A stretch of DNA of 64,000 nt from Obrimoposthia wandeli (lineage: Eukaryota), in NCBI GenBank assembly GCA_977020255.1, contig CDROCS010004593.1, positions 62,001 to 126,000 of the forward strand, given 5' to 3'. Below the pieces are notes generated by a model. It was given only the letters and a program-made list of their open reading frames with translations, did no database searches and was not told where the DNA came from. Shown here piece by piece: positions 4,010-43,359 of this stretch. The position numbers were made by a program, and so were the translations under genes. How positions within the stretch are numbered: the first letter of the stretch is position 1; every line of letters begins with the position of its first letter.

Positions 4010-7000
4010 CAGTTTTAAAAAAATAACACTTTAAAGATACATTTTTTAAAACTATATATAAAAAGGTTTTATAAAATAAAGCATGTGAAGTGAGTTTTTT
4101 AAATTTGCAATAATTTTGCGAAAATTTCTTTTATGTTTGCCAAACGCTTTTTAACAAGATATTGAAACTAAAATTTCCCTCCTTCCAAAACTTAAATTAC
4201 TTATAGGATAAACAGTGTCGAGGTTATATCACAAAATCATGCGTACTTTTGTGTTTTGAAACGAAATTATTCCTTAATACCAAGTAAAACAGTCAAATTG
4301 TCTATGAGAAAAACATTTGTTGCTAATTGATAGTAGCTTTTCAAAGCATTAAAGATTCATACGCCACATTACATGTTCTACTTTAAATGTATGTGAAAAT
4401 ACAAACATTTGTCCTGATTAAGTTTTATTGCTTTATAAATCGTAAATGACGGACGCTTAGTTTCAAAGAAGCATAATTCACAAACATATTCAGCAAAATA
4501 AGTAAGCTGCCTTTATGTCTGAATTTTGTACCAACAAGTTGGAAAATTCTGAAAAACTTAAATCTTTGAGTGTACTCACAAGTCATTGACCAAGTGCTGA
4601 GCTCTGTCTCACTATATCTACCTCAGTTCACCATCAATTCCAGATACAAAACCCTTTATTCTCATTTTCATTCATTCCAGAGATGTAGCCACGATTTCAT
4701 CAGTGTATTTTAGTCTTTATGACAATTATTGTAAATTGAATGTCGTAAATTGTGAAATAACAGTAGATAAAGAAGCTTTTGGACTTGAAATGGAGCCTTA
4801 AAGTTACGATATCGTTTTCAATATTTCCACATTTTTCATCTTTGATTGTCTTGGTAATAACCAAAGAATGTGTGGTTTCCGACTAATCTAAAGAACGTAT
4901 AGAATTAAATAAAATTGGCTACATATATTACTTTGGGCCGTTTGCAGATTGACCCCAGTCACACACATTCCCACATATGTACAGCAGTCACTGGAATCGC
5001 CTCTTTTTAATTTGAGCGATCTCGTCACAGCAAATAATCATTTATTCATTTGAACCTGACACCATGTGTCCAACCGAGGCCAGTTAAATCATGTTCAGTC
5101 ACTACACTGCAGCTAGACTAATCAATCCCAAATGAAACAAACAAAACATTTGATCAAAATGAGGCCTAAACGACCCACAAACTAGGCTTTATACTTTTAA
5201 ACGCACTTTCCGGTACTAGTAAATACATCCCACCATATCTTCCTCCGCATTATCAACGCTGGTGAGACATGGAAGAAACTGAATACACAAATTCAATGGA
5301 AACATCAGCAAAGGTTCCAAAAATAAAACCCGTCATATGAAAAGAGTCGCAAAGCAAAAGTTATAATATAACTTGGACTACAAATAATTGTTATTGTCTC
5401 GACGTATTTAGCTGTTCCACGATGTAAAGACTATGCAAGTAGGACTAAATAATTAAGAAGCTAAATAATAAGAGTCCCTGAGAAAGACAAAATAAAACAT
5501 CTGTCTAATCAAATACGCTGTCCAAAATGTACATATATTTGACCCTTCTGCTGAAACGTTCATAACAAGCAAAGTTTATGACATGGCTCTCTAACTTTCA
5601 ATAAATAACTCAACCAATACGACATAGATGTTTCGTCGTCCTCTTCAACTCATTCTCATTGGTTAAAACTGAAGCAACTCATCCAACTCTATATGTTCCT
5701 TGAATTATATTGACTATCCCTACCAAAACCCAGGCTTTCAAATAAACACCACATCTCCTTTGACTAACGGACATTTTTGACGAACCACTTTTGTCACCTT
5801 TCCCACATTGGAACAACGTTTGCCATCCACCGTGACCATACGTAACTTGTCGGTTCTTCAGTTTTCTAGTTGATCACTTGAACATCACAAGTCATCTCCC
5901 TTGCAACCAAGGCGTCCCATCTTGGTGTCTGCGCTAAACATCGGGCTTGTATTATCTTTGTTTGACTCCTGATCCCTCTGACTGGAAATCAAGTAGATCC
6001 GCTATTATTTGAAGAACTTTTCCTATGACTTCTAATATAATCGGTATTGTTCGAAAATTCATCACACCTAGTCGTATCTTGTCACTTCCTTCTGTTTAAG
6101 TCATAAATGTTACGTCGTAATGACTGCTGCTTTGGTTGACATGCATGTTCTCTTTGACTTGGTGCTATAACCAATTATGTTTATTTTTACAATTCTTCTG
6201 TCTTCATCTGAGATGTTTACCGTTCTTTCTCAAATAACATTTTCGTTAGAAATTATTACAAAATTTCATCTCTCGAACTGACTTTCATTTTTTTATTGAG
6301 ATATAATGCTTTAAAGATGAAACATTGGTATAAATAATAATTTTTCCACACTTGAGGCATGACTTTAACCCTTCATTTCTCTTTCACTTCTTTATTAAAG
6401 ATATACTTTTTTAATCCATTCAAATTACTATATATTTTATGCATCCTCACATATGTCGCTTTTCTTAGGTATTAAGTTTATTCACTGTGTTTTGTGAGTG
6501 TATAAAAATCTATACATGTCCTGAGACGTGTATATACACCTTTCAACTGCAGAAGTGTAGTTTACTGGTGGTGGATGGTACGGTGGTCAAGGTGAAAAAA
6601 TTAAATTGGAAAATTAGGCGCATGGGATACTTGGATTCCGTCAAGTGTGAATTCGAGCAGGTCCCTACGATTCCTGGCTTACTATTTAACTTCTGAAATT
6701 CAACAATTTGTCCGCACGTGTGCCGTCCGTGCCATACCACTGCCCCTAAATCCCTATATATTACATTATGAATTATATAAAGAAACGTATACGTGTTTTT
6801 TTCTATCTCGCCCCCTCCACCCCCAACACCCAAAAAAAAACTAATTAACCCCATTTAACACCCCTTAAAATTTAAAATCTCATAGTGCTCCCACAGAGGG
6901 AGGAAGGGCCTGAGAGGCCATCTAAGGCCAACGTGTGCCATTCTGGCCCGCGGTGGCTCGACGAGCAATATAAATACAGGGTTGTTGGCAAATATTTTGT

Positions 7001-15700: not shown

Positions 15701-16892
15701 TCTATCGATGGATGTAAAAATTGTAACAATGTTGAAAAATACAAGAAACTGATGAAGACTTTAATACTCAGAAAATATTATGAAGAATAATGGAAAACAG
15801 GAAGCGCTTTAGAATAATAAATAATAAATTTATTGGATATCAGCTATATATAAATATTTTATAAATTTAGGTTGTTTTTTAGGTTATTTCAGAAGTAATC
15901 CTTTATTTTATATTATTAAAATGCTCTCATTTCGTTTTAAATTATTGGACAATAACTTTTTTAAATGACCGTTTATTATTATTTTCTCATTTTATCAGAA
16001 AACTGTGAAAAATTGGATATAATTGGGATTATGTCATTATTGGAACTCGACTAAAATTAAACTTTTATATGCAATTTTTTTTTAATTAACTTATTATGCA
16101 AAAAATATAATTAAAATGTAATTTTTCAGTACTTATTTATGTTCATCTAATTAATTTTTTCAATCAGTAAAATGGCTGTTTCTGAGAAAATTAAATTTAG
16201 CACCAAATTCAATTTAACCTCTTATTTTACACTGATTTCAAATAAATCAATTACATTAATTACAAGGTTCTATTTTGGTACCGATACTCTTTATAATTTT
16301 TATAAATGATCTTCCGTAAATATTAAATATTCTGAAAAAATATTGAAAAGAGGTCTCCTTATATACACAAACATCAGACTAACCGTCTTTTATCGTCCAA
16401 TGAGAGCGTCATATATAAATAATTTATTTGAAAATCCATAAGCTTTTCTCAAGCTTTGACTACGTTTGAATGCGAGAATGTCATTGGATAAAAAATTATT
16501 CGAAAATTTTACTTCGAATATTTTGTTGGCTGAGTTCAATGTGCAATGAGCAAATGTGCAAAAATCCAAACAAATTTGATCTCATATCCACATACTAATT
16601 AATTTCACTTATGTATCTCTTTGAAAAAGTTACCTTTCTCCTAGTATTTTGGTATTTTATACTGTTTTTTTAGTTAATTATATACTGTTCTCCTTGAAAC
16701 TATTAAGCCGAAATTCCTGATTAATTTCGGTGCGTTTACTTTTTCACTATTATTAAATAATCGCCTAAATTCACGTTTTATCTTCAGTTGCTGAAATTTC
16801 TTTATTTTTGGTTTTGGACAGTAGGTACTTTGATGGAGTCTAGACCACTGGGGGGGGGGTCCCCCCCCCTTGTGTGCGCACACCAAGTTAAA

Positions 16893-17000
16893 GGGTGTCA
16901 CACCATAAGGGTGTCACACCATAGAAATGTCACACCATAGCGTGTCACACCATAAGGGTATATGTTGCCTCACCATAGGGGTGTCTTGCCACACCATAAG
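16893..17000. repeat. Subterminal ~16-bp repeats with near-palindromic core GGTGTCACACC
   Basis: aagggtgtcacaccat x2, agaaatgtcacaccat, agcgtgtcacaccat and two degenerate copies; mirrored at ~28650-28760. Confidence 0.85.
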
Positions 17001-17020
17001 GGTCTGGCTCAGAAAGGTTA

Positions 17021-17600
17021 TGAAGGTTTGAAGGTATGGTCGTGACGGTCTATGGTCGGCCAACATACCCAAGGGGTTGTGGTCGTCCATAGGTCAAAGG
17101 GTCGGGGTCAGTTTTGACTTGAAGGTTTGAAGGTATGGTCGTGACCGTCTATGGTCGGCCAACATACCCAAGGGGTTGTGGTCGTCCATTGATCAAAGGG
17201 TCGGGGTCAGTTTTGACTTGAAGGTTTGAAGGTATGGTCGTGACCGTCTATGGTCGGCCAACATATCCAAGGGGTTGTGGTCGTCCATAGGTCAAAGGGT
17301 CGGACTCAGTTTTGACTTGAAACTTTGAAGGTATAATTAAGGTCAACTATGGTTGGCCGTCACATCTAAAGGGTCATGGACGTCCATAAATCAAAGGGTC
17401 AAGGTCAGTTTTGACTTGAAACTTTGAAGGTATAATTAAGGTCAACTATGGTTGGCCATCACATCTAAAGGGTCATGGACGTCCATAAATCAAAGGGTCA
17501 AGGTCAGTTTTGACTTGAAACTTTGAAGGTATAATTAAGGTCAACTATGGTTGGCCATCACATCTAAAGGGTTGTGGTCGTCCATAGGTGAAAGGGTCGG
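17021..17600. repeat. 99-bp tandem array, 6 units (3 type A + 3 type B)
   Basis: Unit starts at 17021, 17120, 17219 (tgaaggtttg) and 17318, 17417, 17516 (tgaaactttg). Confidence 0.9.
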
Positions 17601-19514
17601 GCTAAAAAAAACAAAGTCAAGTTTAAAATATCAAGGTTTTTAGTACATGGTTGGAATCATCTTTAGAAGACAAATTCAGTCATAAAGTATGGTCGGTCAT
17701 ATATGAAGGGTTCGGGATATAGACCAAATCAAGTTTTAAATGTCAAAGTTTGAATACATGGTTGGAATCATCTTTAGAAGACGAATTCATCCATATATGT
17801 ATGGTCGTCCATAGATGAAGGGTTAAAGAAAAGTTGGAATTTCATAGTTTCAAGTACATGGTTGTATTCGTCAACATATTACGAGTTTAATCATGTAAAA
17901 TTTTTATGGTCGTTCACAAGTTAAGGGTCAGATTTGGAACAAACATGATAATTTTATTACATGGTTGTATTTGCATATGAAAATTGACTTCAAAGATACC
18001 CTTAAGGTCATGCATACTTTAAGAGGTCCTTGTGAAAAAAAAAATAAATAAAAATAAATAAATAAATAAATAAATAAAAATACTTGTAATTTTCTAAAAT
18101 AAAAATATTTTTAAATTTAAATTTGTGCCAAATTATTTTGTTAGATTTTGGTAAAGATAAACAAATTTTTAATTTAACAAGTTTTTAAGATATTAAAGTA
18201 ACATTATTTAAAATAAATATTAAGGAAAAAGTTAATAAACTCAAATTACTTTACTAATAGTATTATTATTATTATAATTTGATAAATATTTAAATTTATG
18301 CAAATTTTTATCCATTTTATTAATGTAATTAAACAATTCTTTGCGGAAAAATTACTTGTAATTTTATTTTTCTTGAAAATAATAATAATTTAAATTTGCG
18401 CCAATTTAATTTGTTAGATATTAATAAAGTTAAACAAATTTTAATTTAACAAGTTTTTAAATATTAAAGTACCAACACATTTATCAATCAATTACGGTAT
18501 GTGAAAGTTCACTCTTATCAGTTAAGGAATGTATTACGTAATAATACACACACTATTCTATGTGAAAATTTAGTACAAAGTTTTTCCCAGGCTTAGGCAT
18601 CTAAAGAATTATGGTAAAAAAAAATTTTAAATAACTTAAATTTCATGTCATAAGGGTCTTGGAGAAAAATACTTGTAATTTTCTAAAATAAAAATATTTT
18701 TAAAATTTAAATTTGTGCCAAATTTTTTATCGTTTCTTTGATTTAATTAAACAAATTTGATTTTAAACATAATGTTAATTATAAAATAATTAATAATTTG
18801 ATAAAAATTCATCTTACCACAAGTTATTCATTGAATCCATTGATGTATGTCCGTCAGCCTAATAGCATTATTCTATAATCTTACTGTAACTTTAGAAAAA
18901 ATAACAAATTTATTACATTAAAATTTAAAAATTGCGCGTTTTTTTTATTGTTTACAATTAATGTATTTAAACAATGACGAAAATAGTTTCAAACGTAAAA
19001 CAATTCATATTAATTATAACTAATTTATTAAAATAAACAAATTTACAAGTACTATTTGATATTTTTTAAAATATAAATAATTTATTTAAAAAATAATACT
19101 TCAAGTTCAAGTTAAATTTTGATAAAAGTCTGTAAAATGATAAATTCTAACATCTTTTTTAAATTACCGCCATTTTTATATTATCCCTTTTGATGTATTT
19201 AAACAAATGTATATACAAACCTAATTATTATAACTATAAGTTAAATATCTTAAATATTTATTAATTTTAAAATTGCATTATTTTATGATTGTAATTTATT
19301 CCTAAAATAATTTGTAATTTTCAAATTAATACTAGCAACCAATGAATAACATTAATAATATGTTTACATTATATTAATTAATATGTAAATTTTCATGTAT
19401 GTGTTTTCTCTCACATAACTTTCACATGTTATAATGATCAATTAACACTCACATAAATAATTAAAACATCCGTATAACATTCCTTAATTGATTTTTATTT
19501 AAACTGATAAAATT

Positions 19515-19750
19515 AACTTCATGTTATTCAAAGCTTACTGGTTAAAGAAATGTTTATTTATATAATTTGAGTATTAACTTTATTCGATTTTCACTATAAA
19601 TATTCGAAAATATCTTTAACACATTCAAAATAATCATAACTTCATGTTATTCAAAGCTTACTGGTTAAAGAAATGTTTATTTATATAATTTGAGTATTAA
19701 CTTTATTCGATTTACACTATAAATATTCGAAAATATCTTTAACACATTAA
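19515..19750. repeat. ~123-bp tandem duplication inside left arm (mirrored at ~25810-26045)
   Basis: aacttcatgttattcaaagcttactgg starts at 19515 and 19638. Confidence 0.85.
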
Positions 19751-20019
19751 AAAAAAAAAAAAAAATAACTTCAATTTTTTTTAAATTTGTATCGAATATT
19801 GAAAATTCATTTGAAAACACATGTTAATCAAAGCTACTGAAAGCCTTGTCTATAAATTCGAATATCAAATCTTTAATAATATTGTTTTTTATGTAAATAA
19901 ATCAAATTATGTATATATTCGATTATCAACTTAGTATTTATATTTATTATTCGACTTTCTAAAATAATTAAAATGTCTTGTAAAAACACATAAAATTAAT
20001 TATCGATTGTATGAATTAG

Positions 20020-20960
20020 TACAAGTATGAATGCAAATATGAAGGCAAATACTAGTAAGAGCCTTAGCAAGTGAATGTAATTGAAAAAATAAGAGTGTCG
20101 AGAGTTTGATTGAATGCAAGTGTAATTTAGACTATAAGTAAATTAAAATAGAGTTTTCGTTGAATAAATTATAGTTAGATTGAATGCAAGTATGAATGTA
20201 AGTGAATGCTAGTATGAATTTCAATACAAGTAAGTGTCAAGTGCAAGTGAATGTAATTTAAAAATAAGAGTGTCAATAGTTTGATTGAATTCGAGTGTAA
20301 GTTAGACTATAAGTAAATTAAAATAGAGTTTTCGTTGAATAAATTATAGTTAGATTGAATGTAAATGAATGCAAGTATGAATTCAAGTGAATGCAAATAC
20401 AAGCAAGAGTCTTAGCAAGTGAATGTAATTGAAAAAATAAAAATAAGAGTGTCGATAGTTTGATTGAATGCGAGTGTAATTTAGACTATAAGTAAATTAA
20501 AATAGAGTTTTCGTATGAATAAAGTTATGTTAAGTTACAGTAAATTAATAACAAGTAAGCAACTATAAGAAGCAGTGATATTGAAGTATGTAAAAAATTA
20601 GAACGACTAAGTTATGGCAAGATTAATAGAAAACAACACTAAGTTTGACAGTATGAATGAAAATTAGTAAAATATTAATGTATTTGAATGTATTTGAATG
20701 ATAGTTTGAATAAATTACAGTTAGATTGAATGTAAATGAATGCAAGTATGATTGAATGCAGGGTCAAGTACAAGTAAGAAAGAATACGCAATATGCAAGT
20801 ACAAATGTAAATTATGAATGAAAATTAGTAAATATATTAATGAATTTGAATGCTAGTTTAAATATATGAGAGTTAGAATGAATGTAAGTGAATGCAAGTA
20901 TGAATGTAAGTGAATGCAAATATGAATGCAAATACAAGTAAGAATCTTTGCAAGTGAATC
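20020..20960. repeat. Nested minisatellite (gaatgcaagt/gaatgtaagt micro-units within ~180-bp blocks), mirrored at ~24590-25540
   Basis: Repeated gaatgcaagtatgaatg and ttagactataagtaaattaaaatagagttttcg blocks; strongly purine-biased strand. Confidence 0.8.
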
Positions 20961-21599
20961 TTAAACTGCAAGTGAGTACTAGCTAATTATTAAATTAATA
21001 CTATCAATCAATGAAGATGATGTAACAACCTGATGAAGTTATAATAATTAAGATGCGAACTTTCATATTTTCACATAGTTTACCTCCATGTTAAAGTTAA
21101 TCTTTCATACATATTCATGCAATTAAATAATTAAAATGTCTTATCTCGTTTGATAAAATTTCTTAATTGAAATATTTTAAAATAATTAGTTTAATTTAAA
21201 TTCTTTATTTTTAAATAACTTGATTATACAATTATATTCGTAAATATAATTGAAATTATCATTATTCGTTTCTCTTTTTAACTATTCGAAAATATATTTA
21301 AATACAAATTTAGTAAATTAACTCAACAAACAATTTTATTTTTTAATTACTTGATATTTTTGCCATTGTCCGTTTAATATAATATGAATATTCAATTTAT
21401 TTCTTCAAAAATTCATTTTTATATGTTAAATAATATTCTTTATCACATTATTGTGATTTTTATCAAGTGATTTTAACATTAAACTATAAAAATATTTTAA
21501 TTATAAAGTTAGTAGCTGTACCGCGCGTACTGCATATAATATAAATTTCAAATATAAAGTATTATTAAATGTATTCTTTCAAATAGTAAAAGTTCTTTA

Positions 21600-23500
21600 G
21601 ATTTATTTAGTTTTGTTTACTAGACATTCGAAAATTGACTTGTAAACTAAATATATTTTCGCATATATTCACTTTAATATGCTGTAAGTTATTACTTTAA
21701 TATAATTTACAACCTAAACTTCAAGTAATTTACTTAATAATCATAATATTAATGATTTGTACGATAAATTGACTTGTAAACATAAAATATTTACAACAAA
21801 CCTCAAGTAGTTTACTTATTAATGATAATTTAAGGATTTGTACAATAAATTGACTTGTAAACATAATTTATTTTGCATATTCATTTAATATATTGTAAGT
21901 TAATACTGTAATATTTCATTACATAAAAAGTAATTCATAGTTTACTGTCGTTTACAATAAATTGACTTGTAAACATAATTTATTTTGCATATATTTAGTT
22001 TAATACGTTGTAAATTATTACTGTAATATTCCATTACATAAAAAGTAATTGATATTTTACTGTCGTTTACTATAAATTTACTTGTAAACATAATATATTT
22101 ATACATATATTAACTTTAATATGTTGTAACTTATTACTTTAATATAATTTTCAACAAAAACTTCAAGTAGTTTACTTATTAATCATAAGTTTAATGTTTT
22201 GTCAATAAATTGACTTGTAAACATAATATATTTATGCACATATTCACTTTAATATGTTGTAAGTTATTACTTTAATATAATTTTCAACAAAACCTTCAAG
22301 TAGTTTACTTATTAATCATAAGTTTAATGTTTTGTACCATAAACTGACTTGTAAACATAATTTATTTTGGTATATATATTCAGTTTAATATGTTGTAAGT
22401 TATTACTTTAATATTCCATTACATAAAAATTAATTGATATTTTACTGTCGTTTACTATAAATTTACTTGTAAACATAATATATTTATGCATATATTAACT
22501 TTAATATGTTGTAACTTATTACTTTAATATAATTTTCAACAAAAACTTCAAGTAGTTTACTTATTAATCATAAGTTTAATGTTTTGTCAATAAATTGACT
22601 TGTAAACATAATATATTTATGTACATATTCACTTTAATATGTTGTAAGTTATTACTTTAATATAATTTTCAACAAAACCTTCAAGTAGTTTACTTATTAA
22701 TCATAAGTTTAATGTTTTGTACCATAAACTGACTTGTAAACATAATTTATTTTGGTATATATATTCAGTTTAATATGTTGTAAGTTATTACTTTAATATT
22801 CCATTACATAAAAATTAATTGATATTTTACTGTCGTTTACTATAAATTTACTTGTAAACATAATTTATTTTGGCATATTTTCAATTTAATATGTTGTAAG
22901 TTATTACTTTAATATAATTTACAACAAAAACTTCAAGTAATTTACTTGTAAACTACAATATTTATTTGTTGTTGCATATATACAGTTTAAAATGTTGTAA
23001 GTTATTACTGTAATATAATTTACAACAAAAACTTCAAGTAGTTTACTTATTAATCATAAGTTTAATGTTTTGTCAATAAATTGACTTGTAAACCTAATTT
23101 ATTTTTGCATATTTTCAATTTAATATGTGTAAGTTATTACTGTAAAATAATTTACAACAAACATCTTCAAGAACTTTACTTAATAATCATAATTTTAATG
23201 ATTTGATCAATAAATTAACTTGTAAACATAATTTATTTTGTATATATTCATTTAATATATTGTAAGTTAATACTGTAATATTTCATTACATAAAAAAGTA
23301 ATTCATAGTTTACTTTCGTTTACAATAAATTGACTTGTAAACATAATTTATTTTGGCATATTTTCAATTTAATATGTGTAAGTTATTACTTTAATATAAT
23401 TTACAACAAAAACTTCAAGTAATTTACTTGTAAACTACAATATTTTTTTGTTGTTGTTGTTGTTGTTGCATAAGTACAGTTTAAAATGTTGTAAGTTATA
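21600..23500. repeat. Central spacer array of ~85-135-bp subunits with a ~385-bp higher-order repeat
   Basis: Recurrent aaattgacttgtaaacataat and aagttattactttaatat; block at 22081 recurs at 22466. Not part of the inverted arms. Confidence 0.8.
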
Positions 23501-23965
23501 AGAATTTGTGTACTTGTATTCAATGATTAACTTTTATTAAACTTTTATATAACATTTAATGTTTAAAATACTTGAGCAAAGTAAATTAATATCATAAAAG
23601 GATATTAAAATGTATTTTAGTTTAAGATAAAAAATGAGGTTATACGAAGTTAATCTAGTTTAAAACAATTAATATCAAAATTACTTACCAGAATGTCTAA
23701 ACAACAGTAAACTATTATAACCTACAATAAAGAAACTATTGAATTATAATATAACCAATCGTATTCAGTAAGTGATAAATGTACAAATCATTAAAATTAT
23801 GATTAATAGGTAAACTATTCGAAATGTTGTAAAATCAAGAAATAAGTTAAAAATATTCATAGTTGAACAACTCATAACTGAAATTTACATTAGTTTAGTA
23901 TTGTATTATATCAAACATATACCTATACGTTTTAAATAAAGTTACTTTAAAAAAAAAAAAAAAAA

Positions 23966-26900
23966 TTACTATTTGAAAGAATACATTTAATAATACTTTA
24001 TATTTGAAATTTATATTATATGCAGTACGCGCGGTACAGCTACTAACTTTATTATTAAAATATTTTTATAGTTTAATGTTAAAATCACTTGATAAAAATC
24101 ACAATAATGTGATAAAGAATATTATTTAACATATAAAAATGAATTTTTGAAGAAATAAATTGAATATTCATATTATATTAAACGGACAATGGCAAAAATA
24201 TCAAGTAATTAAAAAATAAAATTGTTTGTTGAGTTAATTTACTAAATTTGTATTTAAATATATTTTCGAATAGTTAAAAAGAGAAACGAATAATGATAAT
24301 TTCAATTATATTTACGAATATAATTGTATAATCAAGTTATTTAAAAATAAAGAATTTAAATTAAACTAATTATTTTAAAATATTTCAATTAAGAAATTTT
24401 ATCAAACGAGATAAGACATTTTAATTATTTAATTGCATGAATATGTATGAAAGATTAACTTTAACATGGAGGTAAACTATGTGAAAATATGAAAGTTCGC
24501 ATCTTAATTATTATAACTTCATCAGGTTGTTACATCATCTTCATTGATTGATAGTATTAATTTAATAATTAGCTAGTACTCACTTGCAGTTTAAGATTCA
24601 CTTGCAAAGATTCTTACTTGTATTTGCATTCATATTTGCATTCACTTACATTCATACTTGCATTCACTTACATTCATTCTAACTCTCATATATTTAAACT
24701 AGCATTCAAATTCATTAATATATTTACTAATTTTCATTCATAATTTACATTTGTACTTGCATATTGCGTATTCTTTCTTACTTGTACTTGACCCTGCATT
24801 CAATCATACTTGCATTCATTTACATTCAATCTAACTGTAATTTATTCAAACTATCATTCAAATACATTCAAATACATTAATATTTTACTAATTTTCATTC
24901 ATACTGTCAAACTTAGTGTTGTTTTCTATTAATCTTGCCATAACTTAGTCGTTCTAATTTTTAACATACTTCAATATCACTGCTTCTTATAGTTGCTTAC
25001 TTGTTATTAATTTACTGTAACTTAACATAACTTTATTCATACGAAAACTCTATTTTAATTTACTTATAGTCTAAATTACACTCGCATTCAATCAAACTAT
25101 CGACACTCTTATTTTTATTTTTTCAATTACATTCACTTGCTAAGACTCTTGCTTGTATTTGCATTCACTTGAATTCATACTTGCATTCATTTACATTCAA
25201 TCTAACTATAATTTATTCAACGAAAACTCTATTTTAATTTACTTATAGTCTAACTTACACTCGAATTCAATCAAACTATTGACACTCTTATTTTTAAATT
25301 ACATTCACTTGCACTTGACACTTACTTGTATTGAAATTCATACTAGCATTCACTTACATTCATACTTGCATTCAATCTAACTATAATTTATTCAACGAAA
25401 ACTCTATTTTAATTTACTTATAGTCTAAATTACACTTGCATTCAATCAAACTCTCGACACTCTTATTTTTTCAATTACATTCACTTGCTAAGGCTCTTAC
25501 TAGTATTTGCCTTCATATTTACATTCATACTTGTACTAATTCATACAATCGATAATTAATTTTATGTGTTTTTACAAGACATTTTAATTATTTTAGAAAG
25601 TCGAATAATAAATATAAATACTAAGTTGATAATCGAATATATACATAATTTGATTTATTTACATAAAAAACAATATTATTAAAGATTTGATATTCGAATT
25701 TATAGACAAGGCTTTCAGTAGCTTTGATTAACATGTGTTTTCAAATGAATTTTCAATATTCGATACAAATTTTAAAAAAAAAATTGAAGTTATTTTTTTT
25801 TTTTTTTTAATGTGTTAAAGATATTTTCGAATATTTATAGTGTAAATCGAATAAAGTTAATACTCAAATTATATAAATAAACATTTCTTTAACCAGTAAG
25901 CTTTGAATAACATGAAGTTATGATTATTTTGAATGTGTTAAAGATATTTTCGAATATTTATAGTGAAAATCGAATAAAGTTAATACTCAAATTATATAAA
26001 TAAACATTTCTTTAACCAGTAAGCTTTGAATAACATGAAGTTAATTTTATCAGTTTAAATAAAAATCAATTAAGGAATGTTATACGGATGTTTTAATTAT
26101 TTATGTGAGTGTTAATTGATCATTATAACATGTGAAAGTTATGTGAGAGAAAACACATACATGAAAATTTACATATTAATTAATATAATGTAAACATATT
26201 ATTAATGTTATTCATTGGTTGCTAGTATTAATTTGAAAATTACAAATTATTTTAGGAATAAATTACAATCATAAAATAATGCAATTTTAAAATTAATAAA
26301 TATTTAAGATATTTAACTTATAGTTATAATAATTAGGTTTGTATATACATTTGTTTAAATACATCAAAAGGGATAATATAAAAATGGCGGTAATTTAAAA
26401 AAGATGTTAGAATTTATCATTTTACAGACTTTTATCAAAATTTAACTTGAACTTGAAGTATTATTTTTAAATAAATTATTTATATTTTAAAAATATCAAA
26501 TAGTACTTGTAAATTTGTTTATTTTAATAAATTAGTTATAATTAATATGAATTGTTTTACGTTTGAAACTATTTTCGTCATTGTTTAAATACATTAATTG
26601 TAAACAATAAAAAAAACGCGCAATTTTTAAATTTTAATGTAATAAATTTGTTATTTTTTCTAAAGTTACAGTAAGATTATAGAATAATGCTATTAGGCTG
26701 ACGGACATACATCAATGGATTCAATGAATAACTTGTGGTAAGATGAATTTTTATCAAATTATTAATTATTTTATAATTAACATTATGTTTAAAATCAAAT
26801 TTGTTTAATTAAATCAAAGAAACGATAAAAAATTTGGCACAAATTTAAATTTTAAAATATTTTTATTTTAGAAAATTACAAGTATTTTTCTCCAAGACCC

Positions 26901-28828
26901 TTATGACATGAAATTTAAGTTATTTAAAAAAAATTTTACCATAATTCTTTAGATGCCTAAGCCTGGGAAAAACTTTGTACTAAATTTTCACATAGAATAG
27001 TGTGTGTATTATTACGTAATACATTCCTTAACTGATAAGAGTGAACTTTCACATACCGTAATTGATTGATAAATGTGTTGGTACTTTAATATTTAAAAAC
27101 TTGTTAAATTAAAATTTGTTTAACTTTATTAATATCTAACAAATTAAATTGGCGCAAATTTAAATTATTATTATTTTCAAGAAAAATAAAATTACAAGTA
27201 ATTTTTCCGCAAAGAATTGTTTAATTACATTAATAAAATGGATAAAAATTTGCATAAATTTAAATATTTATCAAATTATAATAATAATAATACTATTAGT
27301 AAAGTAATTTGAGTTTATTAACTTTTTCCTTAATATTTATTTTAAATAATGTTACTTTAATATCTTAAAAACTTGTTAAATTAAAAATTTGTTTATCTTT
27401 ACCAAAATCTAACAAAATAATTTGGCACAAATTTAAATTTAAAAATATTTTTATTTTAGAAAATTACAAGTATTTTTATTTATTTATTTATTTATTTATT
27501 TTTATTTATTTTTTTTTTTTTTCACAAGGACCTCTTAAAGTATGCATGACCTTAAGGGTATCTTTGAAGTCAATTTTCATATGCAAATACAACCATGTAA
27601 TAAAATTATCATGTTTGTTCCAAATCTGACCCTTAACTTGTGAACGACCATAAAAAATTTTACATGATTAAACTCGTAATATGTTGACGAATACAACCAT
27701 GTACTTGAAACTATGAAATTCCAACTTTTCTTTAACCCTTCATCTATGGACGACCATACATATATGGATGAATTCGTCTTCTAAAGATGATTCCAACCAT
27801 GTATTCAAACTTTGACATTTAAAACTTGATTTGGTCTATATCCCGAACCCTTCATATATGACCGACCATACTTTATGACTGAATTTGTCTTCTAAAGATG
27901 ATTCCAACCATGTACTAAAAACCTTGATATTTTAAACTTGACTTTGTTTTTTTTTTTAGCCCGACCCTTTCACCTATGGACGACCACAACCCTTTAGATG
28001 TGATGGCCAACCATAGTTGACCTTAATTATACCTTCAAAGTTTCAAGTCAAAACTGACCTTGACCCTTTGATTTATGGACGTCCATGACCCTTTAGATGT
28101 GATGGCCAACCATAGTTGACCTTAATTATACCTTCAAAGTTTCAAGTCAAAACTGACCTTGACTCTTTGATTTATGGACGTCCATGACCCTTTAGATGTG
28201 ACGGCCAACCATAGTTGACCTTAATTATACCTTCAAAGTTTCAAGTCAAAACTGACCTTGACCCTTTGAATTATGGACGTCCATGACCCTTTAGATGTGA
28301 TGGCCAACCATAGTTGACCTTAATTATACCTTCAAAGTTTCAAGTCAAAACTGAGTCCGACCCTTTGACCTATGGACGACCACAACCCCTTGGATATGTT
28401 GGCCGACCATAGACGGTCACGACCATACCTTCAAACCTTCAAGTCAAAACTGACCCCGACCCTTTGATCAATGGACGACCACAACCCCTTGGGTATGTTG
28501 GCCGACCATAGACGGTCACGACCATACCTTCAAACCTTCAAGTCAAAACTGACCCCGACCCTTTGACCTATGGACGACCACAACCCCTTGGGTATGTTGG
28601 CCGACCATAGACCGTCACGACCATACCTTCAAACCTTCATAACCTTTCTGAGCCAGACCCTTATGGTGTGGCAAGACACCCCTATGGTGAGGCAACATAT
28701 ACCCTTATGGTGTGACACGCTATGGTGTGACATTTCTATGGTGTGACACCCTTATGGTGTGACACCCTTTAACTTGGTGTGCGCACACAAGGGGGGGGGA
28801 CCCCCCCCCCAGTGGTCTAGACTCTACT
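23966..28828 (-). repeat. Right inverted arm (~4.86 kb)
   Basis: Mirror of the left arm with one extra 99-bp unit, a 12-bp deletion 4 nt from the terminus (GGTACTTTGATG absent) and homopolymer length differences. Confidence 0.95.
27950..28640. repeat. Mirror 99-bp tandem array, 7 units (4 type B + 3 type A)
   Basis: ccttcaaagtttca near 28032, 28131, 28230, 28329; ccttcaaaccttca near 28428, 28527, 28626. Confidence 0.9.
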
Positions 28829-30749
28829 TTGGACCAGGTTTCTTTTACATAATTTTTATTTGATACTGAAAAATATTCCTTACTGCATAATTAGACCAAC
28901 CAGATAATATGTAAATCCAATTTTTTTTTTAAATTAGATCTTTGAATGCATACTATATTACTTTGTATTACCTATTATAATTGTAAAATCTTAATAATTA
29001 AATTTACTTGTAATAAAATATAAAGGGTATGGTAAAACTTTTGGCCATTAAAATTTTGAAATATTTACAAAATATATATAATTTAAACAAAATAAATTTT
29101 ATTTATTAAGTAAAATGTTAAATACTTTAACTATTGCAATAATATTTTGTAAAATATTATAATAAAAAAACTACTTTTAATATTATTTGAATGAGTGATT
29201 AAAAATTTTGCCTCGAAGGATAGTTTATATTTATCCTTTATCTTCCATATTCGTTTCATGCTTCCATCATGTTTTGTCTAGTACCCTTGAATCATGATGA
29301 AGATGTTCCATTTTTCAGTTTTCACGTCATTGCCAACTTTCAAATAATCCACAAAAATACTTTCATCAGATCGAATCAATATTGAATTATTATGAATCCT
29401 ATATCCAATGTATATATGATGAAAGATATCATTCAGTTGTTTGATATCTTGTTCATGTATATCTTTGATGATGTAATCAAACTTGATTTTATTCAATTTT
29501 ACATTATTAGTAAAGAGATATGTGATAGGACTCTTGAATAAATACATATCCCATGTGAAATATTGATAACGAGATTGAAATTGAGGCTTCTTTATTTTAT
29601 TGATATGCCTTTCATTGATATCAGAGATATCTTCAATTAGAAGTTAAAGAAAATTCTTAGACTCATTCTTGCTTTTTTCTTTAATGAAATTGTGTTAGCA
29701 AATGATTTGATCTTCTTCATCTTCCTCTGGTGTATTCCTTGGCGTCAACTTCTCGATTTTTTTTGTCAGCATTGTTAGCAGTAATAATAACTGGAATGAA
29801 TAGTTAGTTGTTTTTACTCTACCCAACCTCACCTGATTGGTTAATGATTTAGATTGGTTGTTTACTTTAGTTGTATTTTGGACCAAATTTAATTTTAAAT
29901 CCCATATCACGAAAAGATGTCAAATTATTTAAAAATACTTATTGAACATAATAAAAATTAATTAAATTAAAAAACTGAGTATCAAATTGAAAATAACATT
30001 TTAAATATATTTGTTTAAATTTTTTTTTCTCATTTGTGGCTCATATATATGGCTCATTAATGAAGGTCTTGAATTTATCTAAAATTTTTTAAAATCTCTA
30101 TATTTATTTTTATCAATAAAAATATTGATTATAATAAAACAGCTACGCATAGAAACGGGAAAATTATTACACGAATCATTGGTTTAAAGGGAATAATAGA
30201 TTAAACTATATAATTAATTTTATAATCAAATGTTCAGTATATATTCAAAACAACGAAAGAAAGGCTTTAAATATTTTACAGGATTACGATAATACAATGA
30301 AATCAATAAAATAATAAAAGTCCATGAAGTTTATGGACAAATAAAATAAAATTGTATTTTAAAAAATTTAATGCATAAGAATCATATCAAAGATGAAGAG
30401 TGCTATAGAAGACAAATCAAAAGTGATAAAGGTTTTGTTTCAAATAAATTAGATAAAATAATAAAAACCTTTTAAAATTCTAAGAAAATCAAGTCTAAAT
30501 AACCACATGTATGGTGTTTATAAAGATACATCCAATAATAAATCATTATGTGTGTATGATGGGAGTTTTAGTTGTCAAAACCTAAAATCTTCTACAACAA
30601 CTTCACATTTCCAGAATATATTTGGCTTCTCCTCAAATCATACAAAGAATAACAAAATAATTAGAAGCCATCATAATCAGGAATTTTAAAAACTAAAAGA
30701 CGTTTAAGAGAAAGTTATATTACAAAATTGAAGATATTTTTATCAATTA

Positions 30750-31493: not shown

Positions 31494-31527
31494 GACACCT
31501 CCGTTCATTATTTTTCATAAATCAACA

Positions 31528-33345
31528 ATGCCATTCTACAACAACGTTGACCTAGACGAAGAGACGGAGGTTCAACTCTATGGGGATCTCTCTCCAGTGC
31601 AGCAGCAAACGCCACCACTGTCATAATACATTGACTTAGATAGTCAAGAGTCATCGGTGGTGAGCGAAGGAGAAGCAGCAGCAAGAGCGAACCTGTTACA
31701 AGAAGAAGCCTCATTGGCCAGCTCAACTCCAAGAGAAGAACCAATGGACGTGAGAGGTGGGGTACAGAGATCCCAATATATCGATCTGACTAGTCAGGAT
31801 TCGATAGAGAATTGGGAAGACTGTACTCCCAGACAAAACACAAAACCCAATCGTCCGGCAACTTCATTAGTAGCAGCAGGGAGATCCAATCTCTTCGACA
31901 ATTTTGAGGCGGCAATCAAATGCCCCTGGAAATTGATCCCGCTGTCTCAGCCGGAGAAAGTCCTCGCACCAGACTCAGACGAGGAGCTGTTCACCGATGA
32001 TGTACCTTCGGATTGGGAGGAGGACTTGACTCCATTCATCGACGAATGGATACAGCCAAGTATCGGAGCCCCAGGAGCCAACGAGTCAATGGTAGCAGAA
32101 TAGGACGAGGACGAGTGGCACCTGTTCACCGACGATTGGGATGGTCTCACTCCCTCTGCTACTCCGAAAGCAGATAATACAATGCCTGAACCATTCAAAG
32201 GGTCGAAATCTCCTGTTAGGAGAATAAAAGCAACGAATGAGGTTAGACATCATTTATTTTAAATGTTTTTTAATTTCATTTTCAGAAACTTCAACTGGAT
32301 TTGGCACCGTCAGTGACCATGACGGAGAGGCTAATTGAACCGCAATACTTAGCGAGTCAATGCAGCCAGGAGCTGCCAAGGAGTCAGCTCCGATACCTAG
32401 CGTCTCCAGATAATTTTAAGGTAAATTATTTAGATATTAAATTTAATAATTCATATAGATGGAGAACATTCGCGAAGAGGCAACGTCTATTCAACCGGTG
32501 GATAGGAAGAAAGCAGCAGTTAAGAAACCGAAACGCCATCGGGTCAAAACCCTCACGCGGAAGAAGACCAAGTTGGTGAAACAGGCTAACCTGCCCATCA
32601 TTGAGGTAAATTATTTATATGTTTAAATTTTATTAATATTTTGCAGGAACCCGTCCAGATATTTGAGGAGACTTGGGGAGAAGTTACTCCTTTCTCGCGG
32701 AAACGGACGAAGAGGGCAGAGGTGAAGAAGACAAGACGCTCGAGAAAATGTAAAACCTCAATTGGTCATTATTCTGAGACGGTGATTGGTCAGCAGGAGA
32801 TTCTCCAATCTCCAGTGGACGACGGACCAATCCTATATGAGAGGATCCCAGTCTCGCCGATCGAGATAAGTCCGTCCTCAAGTCAACGACGCCTGCAGGA
32901 GACTGCTTCTTCTCGTCCAACAACCAGCCAGAACTTGAAGAGGGCCTGGGATGACGCTGGTTTGGATGAATTCCTGGCGGAACTGGATTCACCGGCAATG
33001 CTTCCAGATTCGCGTTGGCAACAGGATGCCGTCTCACGCCAGCTTCAGCTTGAGAAGGAGGAGAAACAGAAGAAAGCTCCGCGGAAGAGGAAGAGGACTT
33101 CTACGTCGGGACCATCAACATCGGCTGCACCTCCTCCCAAAACGTTGCGGCAACTATTTCCAAAACCTGAGGGAAGGACAATTGCTACAAAGCAACCGGT
33201 GAAGCCGAAAAAGAAACCGGGCCGACCAAAGAAGAAGGAACCAGTACCGCTTTCTCCTATAATACTTAGTCGGAGGGATTACGACCCGAATGATCCCAAT
33301 GATGACTTCGTAAAGATGTTTAAAAATATAATTTATAAACATTAG
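31528..33345 (+). pseudogene. Four-exon gene for a ~565-aa disordered protein with SIM-like, acidic-aromatic and AT-hook-like motifs; two in-frame stops
   Basis: Exons 31528-32241, 32286-32420, 32459-32605, 32647-33345 join in frame through three phase-0 GT-AG AT-rich introns (44, 38, 41 nt). Stops at 31624 and 32101. Confidence 0.75.
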
Positions 33346-33539
33346 TTTCATATGTTTTCTTCTTAATATTTATTTTTTTAAATGTAGAAATACTATCTTT
33401 AAGTTTATTTGCAATGATAAGTTATAGATTTATTAAACACTCATTTGATAAATAAAAATATATCATTTAATTGGATTAAAAAATATCTTTAATTTATATA
33501 TATAGGTTTAAATTTATTAACCTTTTCATAATTAAAAAA

Positions 33540-33860
33540 ATGGAATTCATTAAAATGAAGAGTCTGGTGACGAAGATTGAAGCAAACATCAGAATAAATG
33601 AGAAGAAAGGGGACTTAAAAAAGAGGGTCCTCAATCAAAATTTGTATACTGCTGTCGCGACAGAGTGGAATCATCGGGTGGAGATACAGGATAGGAGGCT
33701 AGCAGAACGCCGTCGATTCGTGGAGTGGAATAAGAATATCGAATTGGAAAAAAGGAAGGTGGATGAAAAAAGAAGAGAAGAGATGGAGGATGTTCGGCGA
33801 GCAGCAAGAAAGAGAATCCTCCAGATTAAACCGGAAGAGGGTCCTTCTACAAAAAAATAA
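33540..33860 (+). CDS. 106-aa charged, coiled-coil-like hypothetical protein
   Basis: Intact ATG-to-stop ORF with coding-like composition in AT-rich flanks; E/K/R-rich C-terminal half. Confidence 0.65.
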   Translation: MEFIKMKSLVTKIEANIRINEKKGDLKKRVLNQNLYTAVATEWNHRVEIQDRRLAERRRFVEWNKNIELEKRKVDEKRREEMEDVRRAARKRILQIKPEEGPSTKK

Positions 33861-33982
33861 ATTTTTGATTATTATTTTGTCTTTTTTGATTATGTTACAT
33901 AGGAGAATTGACAAAATATTCCAATCTTAACATGAAAGTACTTCGTTATAAACAACGGGATTTGCTACAAATTTAGATAATT

Positions 33983-34183
33983 ATGCAGGAATATATCATA
34001 GATTTTGAGGCTTTCATTAACAAAAATGGGGATTATATTATAAAATAATTATGTATTATGGATGTATGCGACTTTTTTCATCCTTTGCATTTCATATTTC
34101 AAATAGATATCCCATTTAAAAGTTTAGATTATAAGAAAAAATTTACTAATTTATATCTAACTAAATATTTCTCAATTTTTTAA
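33983..34183 (+). pseudogene. DnaQ/DEDD-like exonuclease-fold ORF remnant
   Basis: MQEYIIDFEAFINKNGDYIIK*LCIMDV..HPLHFIF: ExoI-like IDFE motif followed by IKEL-like strand (stop at 34046 where E is expected). Downstream part frameshifted. Confidence 0.5.
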
Positions 34184-34366
34184 TCCAATAGGAAAAGAGC
34201 ATGTGTGCATAAATTTTAGTATATAAGCAAACACTTTCTTCATTTAAATCCCCGACAATTTGAAATAATGCCTATGGTAAGAATGTATTTTTATTATTTC
34301 CTTATTAATATTTATTATTTCAGATTACTTGTAACCTATTCCCTGCGTATTGTGGTGCTTCGTACA

Positions 34367-35621
34367 ATGTCTGCATACTACCGGACAAAGTCTCGCGGGC
34401 TTCACTTCTTTGTCTGCCCCTTCGGCAGAACAATGGAGGAGAAGGAGTTTCGAGACTTCTTCAGTGAACATCGAGCTCATCTATCGTGTTTCACGGCCAA
34501 CAAGAAGAGGGATATCATGCAATTGGTGCGCGATTCACAGGTCGCTCCACATCCAATTCCAGTTGCAGTCGATCAACCCTTTTACGGTCCTGCGATTGGT
34601 CTCCCGGCTCCTGATTCTGACCCATCCACTCAAATGTCTAACAATGAGTGGATGAATGACATATCCCAGTCAGATTTTGAGATAGAGCAGTGGAGCGATA
34701 ACTCGTGGTTGGAGACCATTGAGGAATCCGATTTCATCGAGATGTCGGACGACAGCTGGATGGATTTCGTCAATGAAGAGGACTTCATTCCAGCTCAACT
34801 TGGATTGCCTTCATTAGGTATTTTTTATTATTATTTTTAAATCATATATTTTATTTTTTAATATATATATTTTATTTATATTTTTTATTCAGGAAATACC
34901 GTTCTACAATCGTCATCTGCTACAACAGATATGCCTCCACCATCGCGAGTGCCTACATTGATGTTAGCACGCCTTAGAGGTAATAACTTTTAAAAATATA
35001 TTTATTTTTTAATATATTTCAGCAGCACTAACCTCTACAACAACCGCTTCTTCATCGGCAAGGTCAGCGGTCCCTTCAACATCAGCTACAGTTGCCTCAA
35101 CATCGGCAGCATCAACAATAGCAGCAGCTTCCACATCAGCTTCAATTGTCTCAACATCGACAGCATGTCCAATAGCAGCACCTTCAACCTCAGCTGCAAT
35201 TGTCTCAACTATTAATATAAATAGTTGTCTTCCCATTCAATTAGGGGGAGGTTTGTCAGCGACAAACGGAAGAAAGAGGCGAGGCCAATTTTTTAATAAG
35301 GTCCCACCCAAAAAACGTAGAGAAAACGGTGCTACTATAGAGTATCACCTAAATAATAAATATGTTATAGTTAAGGTGCCATTAGGAAATGAAATTTTAT
35401 TAAACGTAGGTGTAGATTCAAATATTGAAAATCTTTTAAAATCAGAGGTGACTAAATTAGGACAGGCTAAGGTTCAATTTTGCGCAACAGTGCAGTTTAA
35501 AAATGTCAATGAGGAAACTAAAACTGGGGTAATTTCACATAAAGCAACTGTTTTTTATGATAATTTTGTAACTGAAATTGGAAGAAACCTTGATGAAAAA
35601 TTGCTAATTATAGCGAGTTAA
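34367..35621 (+). CDS. Spliced N-terminal extension of the pPolB reading frame (acidic Trp repeats, Ser/Thr/Ala linker, QLGGG, basic motif)
   Basis: Exons 34367-34817, 34893-34979, 35023-35621 join in frame through phase-1 GT-AG introns of 75 and 43 nt and run without a stop into track ORF 35253. Confidence 0.7.
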
Positions 35622-38610
35622 GTAGTGGATGGACTCTAGTTAGAATTCACGATGTTAGCTTTGTTCTAACAAAGTTCACTGACATGATATATCTTTCGGG
35701 GAGTTCATACATTCCTTCGCCTAGATCTCTTCAACTTTCACGTTCCATTGTTAACGTACAAAACAGTGATAACCTTTGCTTTCTGTATAGCGTGTTGGCC
35801 ATCCTCAAAGGGATGTAATTACTGAGCATAGAGAGCGTGTCAGTAAATATACCCTTTTTTAAATGAATTGCAGTATCATGGAATAGATTTTCCTGTTAAA
35901 TTAACTGCGATATCAAGATTTGAACATCTTAATAACTTGAGTATTAATGTATTCAAATATAATACTGATATCCCAGTTAATGTAACAGATGAAGAAATTT
36001 TTAAAAATCCTTTTGTAGATGTAATTTATAGGAGCAAAAATGAGGGGACTCAGGTCAACTTAATTTTGCTCGAACATAATAAAAAATTCCATTATGCTGC
36101 AATTCCCAATTTAGATCGTCTTCTAAATTTAGATAATGGAGCCTTACCGGTTAGGATAAGGTGTAAGTGGTGTCATAGATGTTTGCATGGGTTCCGATCC
36201 GAGCTCTCTTACAGCAAACATCTGACATTATGTTCACTGAATCCTGATGACAATACACTATATAGCATGCCTAAGGATAAGGATTTAAAATTCAGGGATT
36301 GAGCAAAATGCATACCCATGGAATTCAGGGTGTATGCAGATTTTGAGTCAATTTTAGCATTGCACGACCAGTATGAGAGTATTCACCTACCGGCTTCGGC
36401 AGGACTACTATTCTTAGGCCCCAATATTACCCAGTATCATAAATTTTCCGGTCCAAATTGTATTTTAGATTTTATGTTAAAATTAGAGGAATTAGGAACA
36501 ACAATTGTCAAACCGTGGTATCATCTCAATGCTCATCAAGCAATGATCATGCAGGCATAGACTGGGTTAATTTTAATTCTTGTAGATTATGTTATTTGTG
36601 TGGAACCCAGTCTAAGTTAGTCAGAGATCACGATCATGTTACGGGCCGATACTTGGGAGCGGCGTGCAACCTTTGTAACCTTGGCCGTCGTCTCCCTAAA
36701 AAACCACGCATTCCCATCGTGTTTCATAACCTCAAAGGATATGATTTGCATCATATACTTAAATACGCGTTGGGTACATTAAGCTCTTGGGAAATTTCAT
36801 GTATACCTCAAACTTCAGAGAAATATTTATCTTTAACTGCATATACTGAATTCTGCAGTTTAAGATTCATAGATTCTCTGCAGTTTTTGAGCGGGTCTTT
36901 AAAAAATTTAACGGCATCTTTAAATGCATGGCCAATTACACAGTCAGTGTTCCCAGCTTCGGTTAACGATAAGGGGATTTTTCCGTATAAATTTGCGAAA
37001 ACTTTCGCAGATTTAGAAAATACAACTGAAATCCCACCCATAACTGAATTTGAGGGTGTAAGTCTTCAAGACTATAATGAGACCCGTACATTTTGGGTGA
37101 ATAATTGTCAAAATCTTCTCGAATATATGCTTTATTATATGAAGTTAGACATTTATCTTTTAACTGATGTGTTTGAGTCCTTTAGTGTAAAGTCTTTAGC
37201 AGAAGATGGGCTAGATCCCATGCATTTCTTTAGTTTACCTGGTCTTTCATGGGCAACAGCAATAAAAACTCTTAAAATTAATATCGAGTTACTGCAAGAT
37301 CCCGCGATGTATCAAATGTATGATTATGGTATACGCGGTGGAATGACTTTTGTCAACAAACATCATGTTGTCAAAAATCAATCCACGGAGATTCTGTACA
37401 TCGATATTAATAATTTGTATGGGTGGGCGCTTACTCAACCTCTACCTCATGCCAACTTTAAGTCGGTTTATGATGTGGATCAGTTGAATAAGTTGATGAC
37501 AGATTTGGCTACTGTTGATACAGTTTCATCCGACGTCGGCTATTTGGTTGAGGTGGACATAAAAATCCCTCCCAATGTGCATGATAAATTAGATGATCTT
37601 CCAGTAGCGCCTGTTCATCAATGCCCACCTAATTCAAAGGTTAAGAAATTATTGTTAACCCATGAAGACAAGTTGAATTATGTTGTGCATTGGCGGCTTC
37701 TTCAATTCTACTTAAAGTTGGGAGCAAAAGTTACTCGAATTCATCGTGCTATAAGCTTCAGTCAAAACTTTGTGTTTAAAGACTATATTGAGAAGAATTC
37801 AAGAAAACGTAATTTGGCCACTAGCAAATTCGATCGAGATTTTTACAAGTTAAAAAGTAATAGTCTCTTTGGAAAAACTGTAGAGGACTTGCGGAAACGT
37901 ATTTGTCTACGGTTTAGCAATGATGAGCGTAAACTAATAACATATACTAGAAAGTACAACTTCAAGGGTAGTTTTACAATTGCAGATGACTTGGTAGCAG
38001 TGTTATTAGGAAAACAGAGTATTTGTCTCGATCGACCGAGTTATATAGGTCAAACGGTTTTAGACATTTCTAAACTCAGAATGTATGAGCTTCAATACAT
38101 AGAATTGGAGAAATACCGACAAGAATTTAATTGTGAGATTAAAATCGCAGCTGGGGACACTGACTCTTTCTTTTTAGAATGTAGGAATGTTAGTTTAAAT
38201 AATCAATTATTACCAGCAATGTTTAGGGACAACTTACTAGATACCCATAAATATCCCGCTAACCATCCTCTACACTCTATGAGTTTAAAGGACATTATCG
38301 GGAAATTTAAGGATGAAAGCGAGGGACAGGTTTTTCTATGATGATTGTATTTTCCTACGCCCTAAATGCTACAGTTTACATGCATCTAATAATACATGTT
38401 CAATGAGAGCAAAGGGTGTGTACACATGAGGCCTACCGGAAAGTTTATGATACTGGGTGTATTGAAAGCGTTGAGCAAACTAGATTTATTTCAAGAGCCC
38501 ATCAACTGTATTCCCATAAATCAACCAAAATCGCGTTGAGTAGTAATGACGACAAGCGCTTTTGGGTAGAAAAGAACGCTAGCCTGGCTTATGGACACTT
38601 CAGAATTTAA
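35253..38610 (+). pseudogene. polB: Protein-primed family B DNA polymerase (Polinton pPolB), disrupted
   Basis: N-terminal GSSYIPSP..IVNVQNSDNLCFLYSVLA and GIDFPV; ExoI RVYADFES; ExoII FHNLKGYD; motif A YIDINNLYG; motif B KLKSNSLFGK; motif C GDTDS; C-terminal ALSSNDDKR..LAYGH. At least six stops or frameshifts (~35620, 35810, 36300, 36560, 38340, 38420). Confidence 0.95.
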
Positions 38611-38883
38611 ACGGTTTTTATTTTATTTTAGTTTTTTTAGTTTTTTAAAATTTTAGATCCCTATGGCACCTAGACTCTAACTTATTTGTTATTTCAATAC
38701 TTTTTTAGGATGGACCTTATTTATTATGCCTTATCTTTGCTGACATATCTCATTGTGATGTTGTGATTAATAAATGTATTAAAAAAAATTGTCTTATGTC
38801 TTTTTTTATTTTACCCTTAAATTTTTAGAGATTTAAAAAATAATTCAAAATAAAACATTTGAAATTTTTATTTTTATAACACA

Positions 38884-39264
38884 CTAATCGTTTTGCAACG
38901 ATAACCATAAAATACATAAATGTCCACAGTTTCTCGTCGCAGGATCCTGATATTGTATCTTGTTGTAAAATACTCTTCTTCGTCCTTTTTGAATAGTTGA
39001 AACAAGTTTGTGTGGATAATACATTGCAAGTGGATCAAATACATGTATTGTCCACTCTCTAACATAAATAGCTATCCAATGTTCTCCTGGTAAATTCAAA
39101 GTATGAGTATTGATAATGTAACCTCCAGATTGAAAAAATGGAATCATATCAATAGGATAAACTCCATTGAATTTATCACCCAGGACCTTCTCTGCTGATT
39201 CTTTTACTTGTTTTGAACTAAATAAAAATTAATAAATATAAATTTAAAATATGTCTTACTCCAT
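38884..39264 (-). CDS. Adenain-like (Ulp1/C5-type) cysteine maturation protease, two exons
   Basis: GEHWIAIY, VFDP and QYQDPATRNCGHLC give the His/Asp/Gln/Cys catalytic set. ATG 39264, a 42-nt GT-AG intron (39259-39218) and MDSKQVKE..FNGVYPIDMIP restore the N-terminus. Confidence 0.9.
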
Positions 39265-39265
39265 T

Positions 39266-43344: not shown

Positions 43345-43359
43345 TTTAATAAAAAAGGT

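Follow-up and report, generated by a model that had tools for sequence, protein, structure and literature searches.

We analysed a 64,000-nucleotide stretch of the genome of Obrimoposthia wandeli (contig CDROCS010004593.1, positions 62,001 to 126,000; hereafter the window), which carries a 12-kb inverted-repeat insertion at 16820–28828. This element has no genes and is probably a young representative of a high-copy family. It is probably built from the capsid-side end of a coding Polinton (Maverick) from the same genome, repeated in inverted orientation, and is likely to be copied by the polymerase and inserted by the integrase of that Polinton. We refer to the coding Polinton as family A, or the helper, and to its gene-less relatives as foldbacks.

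Firstly, the element is a real and recent insertion. It measures 12,009 bp, is bordered on each side by the hexamer TTGGAC and has two arms of about 4.8 kb that make up 80% of its length (Table 1), just as an earlier note on this DNA had described it: a 12-kb foldback without open reading frames (ORFs), flanked by a 6-bp duplication. A second copy of the left flank lies elsewhere on this contig. In this duplicate segment the left flank, a single TTGGAC and the right flank are directly joined, which provides an empty site. The filled and empty segments differ by 492 substitutions over 41,361 aligned bases; the duplicate may be either a second haplotype or a segmental duplicate, and the insertion is younger than the split of the two. 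Because the flanks differ and meet directly at the empty site, neither chance nor a foldback chimera of reads accounts for the element. At ~176–226 kb of the contig (G000:C4593), most of the window is repeated at ~1.2% divergence, with several presence/absence differences. The two arms differ by four substitutions (up to 21589) and small homopolymer indels; in addition, the right arm contains one more 99-bp repeat unit than the left and a 12-nt deletion just inside its end. This shortened right end has a single match genome-wide, so the left terminus is the family terminus, and we rejected the shortened form as a recurrent end type. The family terminus starts with AGTAGG, as does that of the coding family-A helper.

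The element is rich in repeats and devoid of genes. Tandem repeats with units of 16, 99, 111, 123 and 175 bp occur in the arms, and the spacer consists mostly of a 115/133-bp array. The longest stop-to-stop frame, of 86 amino acids, lies at the low end of the range obtained in 30 block shuffles (83–188 amino acids). A tblastn comparison with 11 helper ORFs gave nothing at E<=0.01, and Rfam gave zero matches; hidden genes or RNAs were rejected on these three grounds. With neither a polymerase nor an integrase gene of its own, the element is not an autonomous Polinton.

Secondly, coding Polintons with the same ends reside in the same genome. A polymerase search returned at least 133 places, at least 56 of them at 88% identity or more (family A) and at least 77 at 80–82% (family B). 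Of the 15 family-A polymerase loci fetched, 11 (8/10 at first, 3/5 later) retain both ends and show this terminus together with a 6-bp duplication; complete copies measure 12.2–13.7 kb, and many copies are broken. Gene-less element and family A have in common an identical terminus, a terminal repeat of ~1.1 kb and 6-bp duplications, which bears out the note's assignment of the element to the non-autonomous Polinton derivatives. Pfam identified DNA_pol_B_2, rve, Pox_A32 and TBP among the family-A ORFs, and weakly Peptidase_C5 (adenoviral protease, below the curated cut-off). No capsid was matched by Pfam or by PDB sequence search; the predicted model of a 406-aa ORF (pLDDT 90.7) has a fold like that of the major capsid proteins of PBCV-1, iridovirus and virophage (E 1e-15), and the ORF is predicted on this model to be a double jelly-roll capsid. 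Family A therefore has the set of an autonomous Polinton: protein-primed polymerase (pPolB), integrase, packaging ATPase, protease and, by prediction, double jelly-roll capsid. Its copies carry 0.08–0.9% private changes each in the polymerase, spread evenly across codon positions, while 21 of the 31 changes common to several copies fall at third codon positions. The arms of different foldback copies are ~1.2–2% apart in the segment compared (segment A), and the low private divergence and third-position bias of the helper polymerase together with this value indicate that both have been spreading over the same recent period. The shared ends, the duplications and the similar ages argue that polymerase and integrase are very probably supplied in trans by the helper.

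Thirdly, both arms derive from one and the same end of the helper. Element positions 1–1124 match the terminal repeat of the helper, and positions 1665–1823 correspond to a segment found beside this repeat on the capsid-gene side in 12/12 coding family-A copies and on the polymerase side in 0/12. The one-end-only segment is present in both arms of 12/12 long foldback copies. Since both arms hold a segment that is confined to the capsid-side end of the helper, the element is a copy-back of that end with non-helper DNA added, which supports the snap-back origin that the note had surmised. When compared with two family-A copies, one family-B copy and the window's own Polinton, the remainder of the arm and the spacer matched none of them; the element is thus one helper end, from the capsid-gene side, lengthened with AT-rich foreign DNA and doubled. 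The note had also held that the element kept a near-genome length while losing its genes: it is indeed 12 kb long and gene-less, but most of it is AT-rich non-helper sequence rather than retained Polinton DNA, and many copies are short. Besides helper and foldback, we found three hybrids of 10.9–12.2 kb that have lost the polymerase. Their capsid, protease, integrase and ATPase genes are retained, as is one arm. The hybrids enter the arm at one common junction, which has 30 exact matches in the genome, and they are probably recombinants between helper and foldback.

The element belongs to a large family. Its terminal 29-mer has 1,791 exact matches in the genome (control, 0), and markers inside the arm have 1,176 (outer marker) and 250 (deep marker). 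A census was drawn from the first 100 termini listed and covered 19 paired and the first 30 of 47 unpaired termini, 15 others lying in one tandem array. Among these 49 loci, 28 are complete with a duplication: 2 polymerase-coding copies, 3 hybrids, 1 other chimera and 22 gene-less copies, nine of the latter measuring 9.8–13.0 kb and 13 measuring 0.6–7.0 kb. The remaining loci are 17 without a far end in the fetched stretch, 3 with a truncated far end and 1 pair without duplication. In a set of 42 complete elements, which includes deliberately selected ones, the 6-bp target duplication is perfect in 39 and has one mismatch in 2, and no element fits another length (3, 5 or 7–10 bp). Twelve long foldbacks at other sites each have their own duplication, and the arms make up 76–92% of the length of long copies. 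In 25 marker pairs, a sample biased to copies that retain both markers, the median spacing is 10.8 kb and the largest is 12.3 kb. Comparison of 16 shorter copies (120 pairs) revealed no clear common deletion junction (best colinear cover 83%, with offset breakpoints), hence no subfamily resembling miniature inverted-repeat transposable elements (MITEs) was seen; the element itself, at 12 kb, is far above the MITE range of under ~600–800 bp, and no short subfamily is amplified among the 16. A terminal 21-mer had no match in viral and metagenome contigs, a weak negative as near records may be left out. Some copies (L037, L038, L052, L047) lie within or adjoin other Polinton sequence, and at L187–L188 (G000:C777) the foldback spacer is interrupted by an 11.8-kb family-B Polinton with its own 6-bp duplication. 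The tandem array noted above (L069–L070, G000:C52 ~645–692 kb) consists of 15 units of ~3.3 kb, each with ~1 kb of the element end, two adjacent units being 99.6% alike.

We then compared the arms within and between copies. The two arms of a copy are nearer to each other than to any other sampled arm in 7/11 copies in one segment and in 6/11 in another. Five variants of the window copy are found in both of its arms but in none of the other copies sampled; one further variant is limited to a single arm. Young copies likewise show two-arm variants and hardly any single-arm ones. Decayed copies have the reverse pattern (for example, 2 two-arm versus 122 single-arm changes), which argues against steady conversion after insertion. 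The arm pattern fits a resetting at or near insertion, followed by drift. Arms or ends are identical in 8/11 foldbacks and in 0/12 helper copies, even at 0.1% decay. Ends of three family-B copies are 0.4–1.8% apart. Either the resetting is restricted to long arms or the helper copies are mosaics. In the mechanism that we propose, the protein-primed polymerase of family A would copy the element from its two terminal origins; the displaced single strand would fold into a 4.8-kb panhandle, restoring an origin; one arm would be rewritten on the other in this panhandle, as in a copy-back defective genome; and the family-A integrase would insert the copy, leaving the 6-bp duplication. We consider it slightly more likely than not that such a folded panhandle equalises the arms during transposition or close to it.

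The sizes of the three classes raise the question of packaging. Helper copies (12.2–13.7 kb), hybrids (10.9–12.2 kb) and long foldbacks (9.8–13.0 kb) overlap at 10–13.7 kb, and this overlap, together with the 16 shorter copies having no common junction, suggests passage through a capsid. The AT-rich filler may hold the element near helper length to fit the helper capsid, a possibility that we place below an even chance. The element could even be a 'gutless' satellite virus of a Polinton that arose naturally and is inherited: a capsid-length copy-back genome that replicates through a panhandle, is packaged by the helper, inserts anew in the germ line and outnumbers the helper ~10:1 beside a polymerase-less hybrid of the same size; we advance this as a tentative and rather doubtful proposal.

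Several observations weigh against the reading developed so far. The short copies form the majority (13/22) of the complete gene-less copies in the terminus-anchored census, and no other window of the arm varies as much as the one-end-only segment (4.4%), so that this segment is unsupported as a conserved packaging signal; many short copies and no conserved signal both weaken the case for packaging. Pairing of the arms was not seen in 4/11 and 5/11 copies in the two segments. About 15 of several hundred copies were aligned, and 'private' variants may therefore occur in unsampled copies as well; the assembly could also inflate the identity of the arms. The two ends of the family-A helper are unlike, with 52 differences in 1,211 bases of non-tandem repeat (4.3%). 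Panhandle repair is thus no general step of the family-A cycle, and we do not retain it as general to all Polintons of this genome.

In one alternative explanation, the foldbacks would be cut-and-paste elements moved by the Polinton integrase alone, multiplied by host gap repair and having no polymerase or capsid stage, their arms being kept alike by host gene conversion between the long inverted repeats. The many short complete copies and the homogenisation of long arms but not of helper ends favour it, as does the precedent of Galileo, in which the longest inverted repeats, themselves internally repetitive, can be those of non-autonomous copies (PMC3573991). However, older copies gain single-arm rather than two-arm changes, the 16 shorter copies do not have a common deletion junction, and the terminus of the element goes with the family-A polymerase and not with family B, although B has the same capsid and ATPase genes. 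We therefore consider a pure cut-and-paste cycle unlikely.

A second alternative is that the helper is another Polinton family, either B or the Polinton of the window at ~31.5–46.9 kb. Family B is a young family with many copies (986 terminal matches), its capsid, protease and ATPase are 95–100% identical to those of family A, and it could provide capsid or integrase (the latter 90–94% identical). Furthermore, a 9.3-kb foldback (L174, G000:C1036:89037–99036) combines family-B-like ends and a 6-bp duplication with the inner arm and spacer of our element; the filler cassette is thus associated with two types of end. The family-B terminus nevertheless agrees with that of the element over its first 7 bases only, and similarity of its repeat to the arm is confined to short stretches, while the window Polinton was rejected as helper, having no DNA match to the element and proteins 26–73% identical; a helper other than family A is thus very improbable. 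Between family A and family B (L183–L192), the polymerase is 61–81% and the TBP 65% identical and the terminal repeats differ; the polymerase appears to travel together with its ends. Finally, an assembly artefact (a foldback chimera or a collapsed inverted repeat) is hardly credible, since, even if the homopolymer indels between the arms point to error-prone reads, distinct flanks meet at the empty site, the arms are separately resolved by the 12-nt deletion, the extra 99-bp unit and the four substitutions, and the 12 long foldbacks elsewhere have their own duplications.

Table 1. Coordinates of the insertion and its parts in the window
Feature	Position	Strand	Remarks
Left target-site duplication TTGGAC	16814..16819	+	Single TTGGAC at the empty site
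Left arm	16820..21589	+	4,770 bp
Outer arm	16820..17943	+	83–95% to terminal inverted repeat of coding family A; 16-, 99- and 111-bp tandem repeats; family terminus at 16820
Helper one-end-only segment, left-arm copy	18484..18642	+	Capsid-gene side
Inner arm	18643..21589	+	AT-rich; 123- and 175-bp repeats; no match in tested coding copies; polymerase-less hybrids join near 20744
Central spacer	21590..23965	.	2,376 bp; 115/133-bp tandem array at ~21632–23499, then short non-repeated tail
Right arm	23966..28828	-	4,863 bp; one extra 99-bp unit
Helper one-end-only segment, right-arm copy	26912..27069	-	
Right terminus	28809..28828	-	12 nt missing behind the outermost 4–5 bases; only in this copy
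Right target-site duplication TTGGAC	28829..28834	+	

The window holds other Polinton sequences as well. Next to it, at 29278–29643, an ORF resembling by eye the 145-aa ORF of the helper suggests an old Polinton remnant. The Polinton at ~31500–46904 is of a third family, with ORFs for polymerase B, integrase, A32 ATPase, a capsid-like and a TBP-like protein, several of them broken; its right terminus lies at 46904, and no matching left terminus was found in the window. PF21738 is present in 15–22% of the cluster members of its capsid-like ORF (Atlas features). The TBP-like protein (Pfam E ~1e-11) is encoded head to head with or near the polymerase module, both here (44563–44907) and at L038:1248–1745. 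A 1.55-kb gene-less element at 47965–49516 has family-B-like termini and a 6-bp duplication with one mismatch; it is 67–84% similar to the outer arm, and its left 24-mer has 17 genomic matches. The window further contains a broken Gypsy-like retrotransposon pol (reverse transcriptase, RNase H; 713–3577) and a 42-bp tandem repeat (60520–61100) that is open in several frames and reads on the + strand as a Thr-rich mucin-like repeat.

Long non-autonomous Polintons have precedents. In Repbase names such as Polinton-1N1_DR, we take the 'N' to mean non-autonomous. The zebrafish families Polinton-1N1_DR, -2N1_DR and -4N1_DR, of the Maverick class, have consensus lengths of 15,469, 11,092 and 10,436 bp, as against 16,276–20,287 bp for Polinton-1 to -4_DR, and the N-families have 1,874–5,744 annotated copies (PMC9341512; families also in PMC9341505). 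Near-genome-length non-autonomous Polintons are thus already catalogued; they are, like our family, long and high-copy, a likeness drawn from catalogue entries. No description of a gene-less giant foldback Polinton was found in the literature searched, which did not reach the founding Polinton paper, so that absence from print is not established. What this genome contributes is a helper that matches the element, an empty site, evidence of origin from one end, a class of hybrids devoid of polymerase, and a contrast between foldbacks and helper in how their arms pair. The element has AG...CT ends, a 6-bp duplication and a common terminal repeat, like autonomous Polintons, whose polymerase and integrase roles are established (PMC6431247, PMC8097293). 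It differs from them in being gene-less and in its 4.8-kb arms, compared with terminal repeats of 46–1,447 bp in the vertebrate Mavericks described in PMC8097293, elements of 12.7–24.6 kb, a size read there as that of a constrained genome; its AGTAGG terminus does not exactly follow their end motif, (AGT)2 or (AG)3. In butterflies, the terminal repeats are ~2 kb long and bear genes (10.1101/2025.02.07.637071). Drosophila Foldback/Galileo elements likewise have long, internally repetitive inverted arms in non-autonomous copies (PMC3573991), but Galileo has a P-superfamily transposase, a 7-bp duplication and arms of up to ~1.3 kb, whereas the partner here is a Polinton and 0/42 elements have a 7-bp duplication. 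Helper-dependent ('gutless') adenoviral vectors keep the terminal repeats and a short end region and are filled with stuffer DNA to a packageable size (PMC7279171). Judged from sequence, our element resembles them in its end-only design and its filler, being natural and palindromic rather than engineered.

Copy-back or snap-back defective viral genomes consist of two inverted copies of one helper end, are gene-less and depend on helper enzymes. The element is similarly gene-less, takes both ends from one helper end and presumably depends on its helper; unlike such genomes it is integrated and inherited, and its arm is mostly non-helper DNA. To date, neither Polinton virions nor Polinton replication has been directly observed (PMC8097293, PMC4028283). 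In O. wandeli, three classes with the same ends coexist in one genome, namely the helper, the hybrid without polymerase and the gene-less foldback; all three have been active recently and their sizes overlap. This three-class set separates what is needed in cis (the ends) from what is needed in trans (the enzymes). Two open questions, whether Polintons pass through a size-limited capsid and whether their replication folds back on itself, thereby become observational tests. Since the arms are alike at the outset and diverge later, they may serve to date insertions in the way that pairs of long terminal repeats do, and several hundred palindromes of 10–12 kb are of relevance to genome stability and assembly. 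If the element were indeed a gutless satellite, it would constitute genetic evidence that Polintons spread within a genome via virions.

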